A stretch of DNA of 36,943 nucleotides from contig CAZCHJ010000002.1 of NCBI GenBank assembly GCA_964498735.1, positions 1-36,943 of the forward strand, given 5' to 3'. Shown here piece after piece: positions 14,021-14,797 of the stretch. The notes under the pieces are model-generated. The model saw nothing but the letters and a program-made list of their open reading frames with translations, ran no database searches and was not told where the DNA came from. The DNA is from an uncultured Gammaproteobacteria bacterium (GTDB lineage Bacteria; Patescibacteriota; Patescibacteriia; Magasanikbacterales; UBA922). Positions within the stretch are counted from its first letter, which is position 1. Each line of letters starts with the position of its first letter. The translations under genes and the position numbers were made by a program.

Positions 14021-14449
14021 ATGCCTCCGATCAAAGCTTCTCGTTTTCCTCGTGCGTTCAAGGCTTGGGATATTCAGGATCAAAAGTTCTACATGCCGGA
14101 GGAAGTTCTTCCGAAACTCGGCCTCACACTCACCGCAGACGGCCTTCCGTATTGGATCAAAGAGCCTCGCGAGATCGTGATATGCTGGTTCACACAGCAA
14201 ACGGATAGCAATAAAGAGCCGCTCTTCGAAGGAGAGATATGCAGAATGGAAGTACAGACGCCCTTCGGAGTGATCCAAAATGTGCTCGGTGTCATGCGGT
14301 GGCTTGAGAGAGATAGTCGTTTCATTCTCATCATGGCCGGAACAGATCCGAATCAACAGTACGCAACCTTAAAAGTCGAAAAGATCGGGCATGAGATTAC
14401 TCACCCCGAATTACTAGCAAAAATTGAAAGTGGCAAAGTGAATGGATAG
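14021..14449 (+). CDS. YopX-like protein
   Basis: The N-terminus PRAFKAWDIQDQKFYMPEE resembles the YopX signature (KFRAWDkk.kkMy). Confidence 0.45.
   Translation: MPPIKASRFPRAFKAWDIQDQKFYMPEEVLPKLGLTLTADGLPYWIKEPREIVICWFTQQTDSNKEPLFEGEICRMEVQTPFGVIQNVLGVMRWLERDSRFILIMAGTDPNQQYATLKVEKIGHEITHPELLAKIESGKVNG
14407..14417 (+). promoter_or_regulatory. Copy of the recurrent motif CGAATTACTAG
   Basis: Exact 11-mer, followed by CAA as at 21827. It ends 24 nt before the IF-1 ATG. Confidence 0.35.
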
Positions 14450-14642
14450 AAAAGAAAAAGGCACAGTCATTGAAGCACTTCCCTCGCTCAAGTTTCGAGT
14501 GGAGTTTGCCGACGGTGCGATTCGTTTCTGTTATCTTGCAGGGCGCCTTCATAAAAACTTTATTCGCATACTCGTCGGAGACACGGTCGAAGTCTTCATT
14601 CCGAGCACCGGTTCAATCGGCCGGATCACACGTCGCTTTTAA
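14442..14642 (+). CDS. infA: Translation initiation factor IF-1 homolog (S1-like OB fold)
   Basis: GTVIEALPSLKFRVEFADGAIRFCYLAGRLHKNFIRILVGDTVEVFIPSTGSIGRITRRF aligns with E. coli InfA [60 protein letters not shown] (recalled from memory). Confidence 0.85.
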   Translation: MDRKEKGTVIEALPSLKFRVEFADGAIRFCYLAGRLHKNFIRILVGDTVEVFIPSTGSIGRITRRF

Positions 14643-14797
14643 TGGCGCGGATCGCAAAGTCTCTCAAAGCACCGGAGCAAGGCTACCGGCACAGAGATCA
14701 TCGAGCCGCAAAGAATCGGGCGCAAGGAAGCCGCACAGAGAAGCGAAAGAGAAAGCAATTCCGTGATCGGCTTGCAGAGCTTGAAATGAGAGAATGA
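14642..14797 (+). CDS. Small very basic protein (51 aa), not in the ORF track
   Basis: My own translation: MARIAKSLKAPEQGYRHRDHRAAKNRAQGSRTEKRKRKQFRDRLAELEMRE. TAATG overlap with the IF-1 stop and ATGA overlap with the TerL start. Confidence 0.35.
   Translation: MARIAKSLKAPEQGYRHRDHRAAKNRAQGSRTEKRKRKQFRDRLAELEMRE

Follow-up and report, generated by a model that had tools for sequence, protein, structure and literature searches.

We report that a 36,943-nucleotide stretch of DNA (contig CAZCHJ010000002.1 of GenBank assembly GCA_964498735.1, positions 1 to 36,943 of the forward strand; this whole stretch is called the window in the following), a phage genome segment of 36.9 kb with densely arranged genes that all lie on one strand, encodes a genuine homologue of the bacterial translation initiation factor IF-1 (InfA), as judged from sequence and predicted fold and with functional equivalence being reserved. 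Translation factors of viruses have so far been regarded as a luxury of giant genomes, whereas here a conserved and selected IF-1 is found in a phage of about 37 kb. We assume, with a probability of roughly one half, that the protein is a ribosome-binding paralogue of IF-1, which would support or bias initiation independent of Shine-Dalgarno (SD) sequences as well as termination-reinitiation, together with an initiator tRNA of the phage. The open reading frame (ORF) in question is the following:

14442..14642, plus strand: phage-type IF-1 (InfA) homologue of 66 aa with an oligonucleotide/oligosaccharide-binding (OB) fold, assigned by PF01176, PDB alignments, an AlphaFold2 model and Foldseek

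The original prediction, made from the letters of the DNA, had stated that this product can be aligned with bacterial IF-1 along its whole length and had named a profile search as a check. Such a search gave a significant result: the Pfam family PF01176 matches residues 5-65 with 48.6 bits compared with a gathering score of 30.2 (E 6.5e-13). In addition, phmmer matched twelve solved IF-1 chains of the PDB with E values from 2e-11 to 3e-4, the best of these alignments (E 2e-11 to 1e-6) spanning residues 5-66 of the 66-aa protein, and the conserved sequence blocks named in the prediction are present. An AlphaFold2 model, which was built from 64 sequences of the phage clade described below, has a mean pLDDT of 94.6 and consists of five strands and a short helix in an OB fold (strands at residues 3-13, 17-22, 27-32, 48-53 and 60-65, helix at 34-38). 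A comparison of this model with the PDB using Foldseek revealed bacterial IF1, free and 30S-bound, as the top 12 matches with query-normalised TM scores of 0.79-0.92. For IF1 of E. coli, S. pneumoniae and M. tuberculosis the TM score is 0.86-0.92 and the rmsd 1.2-1.9 Å, and the next ranks are taken by eIF1A/aIF1A and then by the N-domain of RsgA. Identity to the solved IF1 structures amounts to 36-43% in the Foldseek alignments. With cellular IF-1 (PF01176, TIGR00008) the protein has in common the length class, the S1-like OB fold (TM about 0.9; five strands plus one short helix), the C-terminal Arg and the motifs G-x-x-x-K-N-F/Y-I-R-I-x-x-G-D, LP...F-R/K-V and G-R-I.

A search of 5.8 billion proteins retrieved about 63 clusters at 62-89% identity, all of them 66-71 aa long and many of them located on contigs of 35-37 kb, and the next tier of identity lies at 54% or below. 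The loci of this clade were drawn from Logan, IMG/VR and metagenomes (where single loci have to be told apart, they are numbered L001 and so on). Their gene order is YopX-like gene, IF-1, small basic ORF, large terminase subunit (TerL), a gene for about 235 aa in most loci, and portal. This arrangement is different from the cellular context adk-map-infA-rpmJ-rpsM, as the window has YopX, IF-1, the small ORF and terL in a row. In 15 loci the synonymous sites of the IF-1 gene are saturated (median pS 0.79, pN 0.25), and the unsaturated pairs among them yield a ratio of nonsynonymous to synonymous changes (dN/dS) of about 0.13. Judged by these codon comparisons, the gene is under strong purifying selection.

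To see which parts of the factor have been kept, 76 clade sequences were compared column by column with 83 cellular IF-1 sequences, using a conservation threshold of at least 85% in the cellular set. Twenty columns that are conserved by this measure are retained in the phage clade, namely G7, V9, E11, L13, P14, V20, G34, N39, F40, I41, R42, G46, D47 and V49 as well as P54, G60, R61, I62, R65 and (near-)equivalents. These columns span the β1-β2 loop, the region of the short helix and the C-terminal arginines. The contact helix region of the window protein reads G34-x-x-x-K38-N39-F40-I41-R42...G46-D47; cellular K39 corresponds to R/K35 in the phage clade, R46 to R42, R66 to R61 and R70 to R65, and N43, F/Y44, I45, G50 and D51 have kept counterparts as well. 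In contrast, the cellular loop S-P-Y-D-x-x-[KR] is replaced by P-[SPD]-[TQ]-G-x-I, which is one residue shorter due to a deletion of the S/T of "SPYD". This rebuilt loop between β4 and β5 has the sequence V51-F-I-P54-S-T-G57-S-I59-G-R61-I in the window, and in the clade E56 has changed to V/F52 and L62 to G57.

The roles of these residues are taken from work on E. coli, C. difficile and Thermus and are given in E. coli/C. difficile gene numbering. The β1-β2 loop of IF-1 enters the minor groove of h44, and the helix contacts the 530 loop and the flipped bases A1492/A1493 (PMC10913371, PMC4611024). In detail, K39 and M42 touch the 530 loop, R41 and R46 touch A1492/A1493, and the face towards S12 includes H35, Y60, R64 and R66 (PMC10913371). 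Binding to 30S requires the C-terminal Arg, and Arg64 perturbs the h44 pair A1413-G1487 (PMC4611024). As the contact helix and the C-terminal arginines are kept and the loop facing S12 and h44 is changed, it seems that the anchor at the decoding site was retained and that the surface which senses or transmits the conformational change of 30S has been redesigned.

The second component of the putative system is a tRNA in the same predicted operon as IF-1; an initiator-type tRNA is also present in L013 and L126, two phages with variant IF-1 proteins:

12535..12606, plus strand: tRNA-Met(CAT) of the initiator type, identified by ARAGORN, by Rfam (tRNA, 53.5 bits) and by its fold

That this is an initiator tRNA had already been proposed from the letters and is supported by the C1xA72 mismatch, the A11:U24 pair and the conservation in relatives. 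The anticodon stem is A29:U41/G30:C40/G31:C39 and the anticodon loop is UUCAUUC with U37 and C38. In 9 of the 10 clade loci scanned, a tRNA-Met is located about 1.85 kb upstream of IF-1. All eight aligned clade copies have a mismatch at 1:72 (C-A, A-A or C-U) and the CAU anticodon is present in all tRNAs; A11:U24 is absent from those of L002, L018 and L026. Only G30:C40 of the three consecutive G:C pairs of initiator tRNAs (3GC) is invariant across the eight copies, and the pairs flanking it vary freely, including Y:R pairs. The tRNAs of L013 and L126 have C1xA72 and keep the middle G:C or two G:C pairs, and their anticodon loop is the canonical CUCAUAA. The likeness to bacterial tRNA-fMet comprises CAU, the 1:72 mismatch, A11:U24 in the window copy and G30:C40, whereas the clade tRNAs differ by the incomplete 3GC element, the variable flanking pairs and the loop UUCAUUC. 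It has been described that the 1:72 mismatch drives formylation and that the role of the 3GC pairs comes at a later stage, when the P site is selected for and 30S passes to 70S; G30 within G30:C40 is the critical part of the element, and natural variants presumably need compensating mechanisms (PMC5389676). The window copy belongs to the au/GC/GC type, which is described there among the natural 3GC variants of mycoplasmas and alpha-proteobacteria. Host initiator tRNAs are not present among the cellular infA loci that were compared. As a separate observation, the loop UUCAUUC, with a pyrimidine at position 37 and C38, is invariant in 8/8 clade copies including those of L001-L004, L009, L018 and L026.

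In the scenario we favour, an IF-1 gene would have been captured long ago, most likely from hosts belonging to the Patescibacteria (candidate phyla radiation, CPR), and would have diversified within phages to a phage-adapted paralogue. During infection the protein would dock on the 30S A site of the host via the kept helix for h44 and the 530 loop and via the C-terminal arginines. Acting there jointly with the initiator tRNA of the phage, it would keep up or bias the start of translation of the phage mRNAs, which are SD-less, tightly packed and often overlapping cistrons, some of them apparently leaderless. On such mRNAs initiation and termination-reinitiation by 70S scanning would depend mainly on fMet-tRNA and be stimulated by IF1. 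The rebuilt β4-β5 loop facing S12 and h44 and the exchange of R41 to His might alter the coupling to the 30S switch, or to IF3 and IF2, and this altered coupling could help to accept a phage initiator tRNA without the full 3GC element. According to published work, fMet-tRNA triggers re-initiation by 70S scanning and IF1 stimulates this process (PMC5972666, which summarises Yamamoto 2016). Re-initiation was also found to need initiator-specific features of the tRNA and to be raised by IF2 and lowered by IF3 (PMC2268962). Furthermore, IF1 in the A site anchors the C-terminal domain of IF3 in the discriminating position and bridges to IF2 (PMC5037330). If the phage protein indeed acts on ribosomes, IF-1, the least understood bacterial initiation factor, would turn out to be a viral control point, and natural variants of IF-1 and initiator tRNA would become available for dissecting the coupling to S12, h44, IF3 and IF2. 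They would also provide a handle on translation start in the SD-poor and hard-to-culture Patescibacteria and their phages.

The original prediction had also taken SD-less start sites as a sign of re-tuned initiation, which does not hold. With genes called crudely as ORFs that start with ATG on a single strand, an SD-like motif was found ahead of 4 of 48 genes in the window and ahead of 6% of the genes in the clade. In loci with infA in the ribosomal operon the corresponding values are 7% for Patescibacteria, 9% for Saccharibacteria and 10% for Chloroflexia, compared with 66% for Clostridia and 55% for Bipolaricaulota. Since the frequency is low in the candidate host lineages too, SD-less starts fit the likely host and need no special explanation by the phage, and we dropped them as evidence for a phage-specific adaptation. 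"Deliberate re-tuning of initiation" is nevertheless a reasonable hypothesis, which is sharpened by the rebuilt loop in combination with the variant initiator tRNA. A similar distinction has to be made for the translational coupling proposed for IF-1, a 51-aa ORF directly downstream and terL: the overlaps between these genes exist, but they are not special to the trio, since 17 of the 47 gene junctions in the window overlap and 26 of the 47 are spaced by 5 nt or less.

With respect to transcription, the window contains repeated promoter-like sequences, of which the following is the nearest upstream of the tRNA:

11060..11068, plus strand: extended -10 promoter-like motif TGGTATAAT, matching the pattern TGNTAYAAT

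The pattern occurs seven times, always on the plus (coding) strand (starts at 3487, 8865, 11060, 18846, 25411, 27887 and 36015), compared with 0.87 expected copies, and none of 100 shuffled sequences reached seven. In four copies (8865, 11060, 18846 and 27887) the distance from the end of the motif to an ATG is 7-11 nt, an indication that some of the phage mRNAs are leaderless or have very short leaders. The copy at 11060 is the nearest one upstream of the block that comprises the tRNA, the lysis genes, IF-1, terL and the portal gene, and the next one follows at 18846. As there is no copy in between, this whole block may be a single late transcription unit. The location inside a long predicted operon, together with the OB/S1-like fold and the basic surface, would also be compatible with a general RNA chaperone or antiterminator, which, without involvement of the A site, would melt RNA and so help transcription to read through, or translation to proceed, on long phage operons. 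E. coli IF1 has been reported to melt RNA structure similar to proteins with a cold-shock domain. As it is mainly the ribosome-contact helix and the C-terminal arginines that are conserved, we consider such a role highly improbable.

A number of points speak against the assumption of an IF-1 paralogue that tunes initiation on phage mRNAs. With the equivalog model TIGR00008 (infA) of NCBIfam the protein reaches 46.1 bits, which is below the cut-off of 61.15. The S12-facing H35 is replaced by Y31 in 100% of the clade members and R41 by H37 in 95%; furthermore, Y60 is changed to S/P/D, and the two residues D61 and K/R64, which are present in 100% of the 83 cellular sequences, are changed to T/Q56 and I59. 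The altered loop, the H35-to-Tyr and the R41-to-His exchanges are invariant or nearly so in the clade and absent from all 83 cellular sequences. The replacement of residues facing S12 and h44 in combination with R41-to-His could weaken or change 30S binding and not tune it. In addition, no tRNA was found in the examined flank of the relatives L011 and L125. As 70S scanning is SD-dependent in E. coli (PMC5972666), its transfer to an SD-less host is an extrapolation. It is also puzzling for what purpose a 37-kb phage carries an extra copy of a gene, if the lineage of the likely host is SD-poor as well and possesses an infA of its own, and the assignment of the host is indirect and based on a similarity-biased cellular sample.

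The same exchanges allow an opposite interpretation, in which the variant IF-1 is a dominant-negative blocker of the A site that stalls host initiation by the 30S pathway, while leaderless or re-initiating cistrons of the phage continue on 70S ribosomes. The loss of the cellular invariants D61 and K/R64, the latter acting on h44 pairing, and the change of R41 to His (PMC4611024, PMC10913371) would agree with this idea, as would the numerous overlapping cistrons and the promoter-like motifs that abut ATGs. However, the residue changes equally fit adaptive tuning, and most of the phage cistrons are internal ones and depend on initiation factors all the same. There is no sign of toxicity and the gene is located in the lysis/packaging block and not among the early genes, so that we regard a shut-off of the host by this protein as improbable.

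Another explanation starts from the unusual anticodon loop. The phage IF-1 and the altered-loop initiator tRNA could serve to escape or block abortive-infection effectors of the host that are aimed at translation start: IF-1 in the A site would exclude ribosome-dependent mRNA interferases of the RelE/HigB/YoeB/YafQ type, and the variant tRNA would resist VapC-like nucleases that cleave tRNA-fMet. IF1 clashes sterically with HigB and overlaps with the binding sites of RelE, YoeB and YafQ (PMC4931118). Mutations in the anticodon loop of phage tRNAs have been proposed to let them escape from VapC, PrrC and colicins; one such nuclease, VapC-LT2, has tRNA-fMet as its target (PMC10264068). The finding that the loop is invariant in the clade while the stem pairs are variable would be in line with this, and the very unusual UUCAUUC could reflect evasion of an anticodon-loop nuclease. 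Moreover, genes for a LigT-like RNA ligase and for Fic-domain proteins adjoin the module in L125 and L126. On the other hand, no defence system or toxin was identified in any host, and the tRNAs of L013 and L126 have retained the canonical loop. As IF-1 is in the A site only during initiation, the protection would be partial, and shielding alone does not account for the rebuilt β4-β5 loop. We judge a counter-defence function to be rather unlikely. A more far-reaching version of the initiation hypothesis would combine these aspects: in small phages of Patescibacteria-like hosts, the phage IF-1, with its coupling to the 30S switch and to IF3/IF2 changed by the rebuilt loop, and a co-evolved initiator tRNA that has shed the 3GC element might form an orthogonal initiation pair, with a preferential start or restart on SD-less, leaderless or overlapping cistrons and possibly with initiation that is immune to toxins and nucleases. 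This proposal is tentative and in our view doubtful, but if true the virus would have seized control of start-site selection by minimal means, at the expense of about 270 nt of coding capacity.

How does this protein relate to IF-1 of other phages? It is known that huge phages carry IF-1, which was interpreted as a means of intercepting translation initiation of the host (Al-Shayeb et al. 2020, PMC7162821). The IF-1 proteins of Lak megaphages, of Sinorhizobium phage Phosso and of LR756511 are comparable to the window protein as phage-encoded homologues of the factor. These carriers have genomes of 469-595 kb and many translation genes, whereas the window has about 37 kb, no detected polymerase genes, and one tRNA and IF-1 as the only translation-related genes that were found. 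Furthermore, the IF-1 of Lak, Phosso and LR756511 keeps the canonical loop E-x-S-P-Y-D-x-[ST]-K-G-R-I, in contrast to the clade of the window. The assumption that phage translation factors occur mainly in very large genomes proved to be right for IF-1 in a reference collection of 50,697 phage genomes, in which genuine carriers were found only at 469-595 kb. Apparent carriers of small or medium size, MT835508 (46.7 kb), OR846589, OR844994 and CAKLQH020000005, were rejected as fragments of bacterial chromosomes: in these mislabelled records (L120, MT835508.1; L128, OR846589.1; L129, OR844994.1; L124, CAKLQH020000005.1) infA lies in the order secY-adk-(map)-infA-rpmJ-rpsM-rpsK-rpoA or in truA/gadX/leuB contexts. 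In the opposite direction, real IF-1-like proteins sit unrecognised in phage catalogues, since the window protein matches phrog_30201 of the PHROG collection (E 1.4e-10, 42 bits, residues 6-63), a family that is annotated as "unknown function". This is an annotation gap on both sides. In the literature we found no IF-1 in small phages and no phage-specific subtype of IF-1 beyond the reports on huge phages, and the CPR-phage papers that were checked do not mention IF-1. What appears to be new are the distinct conserved loop, the minimal genomes and the recurrence together with non-canonical initiator tRNAs, whereas the fold is the same as in the known proteins and the binding site probably is, too.

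Regarding the origin of the gene, a recent capture from a host as well as a bacterial contig can be ruled out by the phage neighbours, by the identity of at most 58% to the cellular IF-1 proteins that were compared and by the age and diversity of the clade. The cellular set includes 80 loci kept from a scan in which each GTDB species was represented by one genome and which was guided by similarity patterns, so that the set is biased by similarity. Among these loci the identity to the window protein is at most 54%; the closest cells are a metagenome-assembled genome of the Patescibacteria group and Azambacteria, followed by Wildermuthbacteria, Parcubacteria and Paceibacterota, with Clostridia and Chloroflexia close behind. 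Considering all pairs of phage and cellular IF-1, the identity has a maximum of 58% and a median of 42%. The original prediction had named a very recent and unmodified capture of host infA as the outcome that would speak against it; as far as the sequences go, the gene is instead clade-wide, modified and under selection.

A search with the clade profile against 1.84 billion representatives at 50% identity gave 5,466 proteins at E <=1e-3. Among the best 148 of these there are about 35 short proteins (64-82 aa) with hallmarks of the phage type, which are "RCY" or "AY" in β3 and, at the position preceding G-R-I, a hydrophobic residue in place of K/R. The genomic context was inspected for a handful of representatives of these variants. 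P0137 (L125) belongs to a 36.1-kb relative with the gene order Fic, LigT-like RNA ligase, YopX, a 153-aa gene, IF-1, small basic ORF and TerL. P0286 (L126) originates from an unrelated phage of 38.5 kb with a portal of the SU10 type, which carries tRNA-Met, Fic and peptide deformylase and in which IF-1 overlaps the stop of TerL and is located directly downstream of terL. L013 is a 49-kb IMG/VR contig with tRNA-Tyr and tRNA-Met, in which IF-1 is 3 kb upstream of TerL with five genes in between, and the match P0304 (L127) is cellular and part of a ribosomal operon. The phage-specific-looking lineage of IF-1 is shared by several phage groups that are unrelated to each other and have sizes of about 36-50 kb; a non-canonical initiator tRNA is present in at least three of these groups. 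Phages with a variant IF-1 or the small basic ORF contain further accessory genes connected to translation or RNA repair (L125 5891-7568; L126 860-1126 and 4582-5539; L117 7677-8075), namely genes for Fic-domain proteins, a LigT-like RNA ligase (phrog_755), peptide deformylase and a KH-domain protein. Peptide deformylase, which is linked to translation start, is present in L126 and L117.

A phylogeny against cellular infA, which had been suggested as a check, was calculated by neighbour-joining with 136 sequences, 70 columns and Kimura distances, the cellular-type set including three huge-phage IF-1 proteins. The clade of the window nests among the phage-type variants: its immediate sister is such a variant in 96 of 100 bootstraps, and in 200 bootstraps a median of 30 of the 32 variants joined it before any cellular sequence. 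Cellular-type sequences, including the three from huge phages, rarely joined before the phage-type variants, and all cellular ones that join first belong to the Patescibacteria. This pattern would be explained by an ancient capture from CPR bacteria, on one or a few occasions, with a subsequent spread among phages, but as the protein is short (70 columns) and the cellular sample is biased by similarity, the tree is suggestive and not a proof. The hosts are probably ultra-small groundwater bacteria of the Patescibacteria.

The genes in the direct neighbourhood of IF-1 are:

14021..14449, plus strand: YopX-like protein of 142 aa (phrog_98, E 4e-7; its L001 and L002 orthologues match PF09643 YopX)
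14642..14797, plus strand: small basic protein of 51 aa with an isoelectric point of 11.4 and 17 K+R, conserved downstream of IF-1
14794..16332, plus strand: TerL of 512 aa (PHROG phrog_2, E 1.1e-19)

The assignment of TerL is accompanied by distant tblastn matches to annotated terminases and by the synteny in L001, L002 and L125. The stop codon of the YopX-like gene overlaps the start of IF-1 by 8 nt, the TAA stop of IF-1 at 14640-14642 and the start ATG of the 51-aa ORF have one base in common (TAATG), and the TGA stop of the latter overlaps the ATG of terL at 14794 (ATGA). Both the TAATG and ATGA overlaps and the 51-aa ORF itself had been predicted with exact coordinates. According to its conservation this ORF is a real gene: homologues lie directly 3' of IF-1 in every clade locus with enough flank, and the family comprises 63 clusters with M1, K6, H17, R18, H20 and R21 being invariant. 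The N-terminal motif MARxxKSLxxPEQGYxHR[DE]HRSxK(G)R is followed by a variable basic helix, and dN/dS is about 0.12 for the N-terminal 26 codons compared with 0.63 for the tail. The AlphaFold2 model consists of an N-terminal coil with pLDDT 61-75 and a single C-terminal helix (31-50); the N-terminal motif is probably extended. No relatives of the protein were detected in Pfam, PHROGs, NCBIfam or the PDB. As rpmJ follows infA in most bacteria (68 of about 89 cellular loci scanned), we asked whether the ORF could be a diverged bL36 from a captured infA-rpmJ cassette. This was rejected: the hhalign probability is 0.1%, Pfam L36 is not found among 15 members at E <=10, there is no PDB match, and the family is devoid of the conserved cysteines of the bL36 Zn-ribbon (C-x2-C...C-x4-H), so that the likeness is positional only. 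A match of one of the 15 members to Ribosomal_S13_N (E 0.015) was taken as noise. The idea of an obligate partner of IF-1 is weakened by family members in phages without a nearby IF-1, as the distant members P0130 and P0133 from other groundwater phages have neither IF-1 nor TerL within about 6 kb on either side. Overall, the 51-aa product is probably an independent small nucleic-acid-binding protein. Two observations on this family may be added. Many orthologues, those in L001, L004, L012, L016, L017 and L023, share a conserved C-terminal end RKGKWI[AIV] just before the start of terL, an ending that the window copy does not have. L118, a 25-kb phage contig from Hainich groundwater with a distant member of the family, contains a cluster of the queuosine/archaeosine type at 10037-12189 with a radical SAM QueE-like protein, PTPS/QueD, GTP cyclohydrolase I and QueC.

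The proximity to terL raises the question whether IF-1, with or without the small basic protein, could act not in translation at all but together with TerL in packaging, as a nucleic-acid-binding substitute for the small terminase subunit (TerS). No small terminase is recognisable in the window, and the IF-1 gene is near terL in three lineages, immediately upstream in the clade of the window and in L125 and downstream in the unrelated L126. The offset of IF-1 differs among related contigs of 35-37 kb (L001-L003, L026) as if these were circularly permuted, which fits headful packaging; within the window itself (1-36943) there is no terminal direct repeat or circular overlap of at least 40 nt. 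The small ORF has a TerS-like position upstream of terL, but its model of a coil and one helix goes along with no similarity to TerS families in Pfam, PHROG or the PDB, and members of its family are found away from terL in L117 and L118. Likewise, IF-1 is separated from terL in L013 by the five genes mentioned above, and no known TerS has the fold of IF-1 as far as PHROG and Pfam show. The retained residues of the phage protein are precisely the rRNA contacts of IF-1, which would be unnecessary for the recognition of DNA. A packaging accessory is a very improbable explanation in our opinion.

The other genes of the window are arranged as follows. The replication module contains a helix-turn-helix protein, a DnaC/DnaA-like ATPase, an AAA_24 protein, a PD-(D/E)XK nuclease and SSB and is followed by numerous small ORFs without assigned function and then by the tRNA. 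Between the tRNA and the pair of IF-1 and the 51-aa ORF lie the genes for an endolysin carrying a PG_binding_1 domain, for a Zn-ribbon protein and for the YopX-like protein, in this order; a portal-sized gene for 571 aa, tail-sized genes and a gene for a 1968-aa protein lie 3' of TerL. The Zn-ribbon ORF (95 aa, 13730-14017, between endolysin and YopX-like gene) has a CxxC Zn-ribbon-like segment, for which the matches to CapR/Zn_ribbon are weak (E 0.005-0.09). The 1968-aa ORF at 30098-36004 includes a kinase-like Zeta-toxin domain at residues 580-664 (Pfam E 1e-9); its product may be a giant protein that belongs to the virion or is ejected and that has an enzymatic domain.

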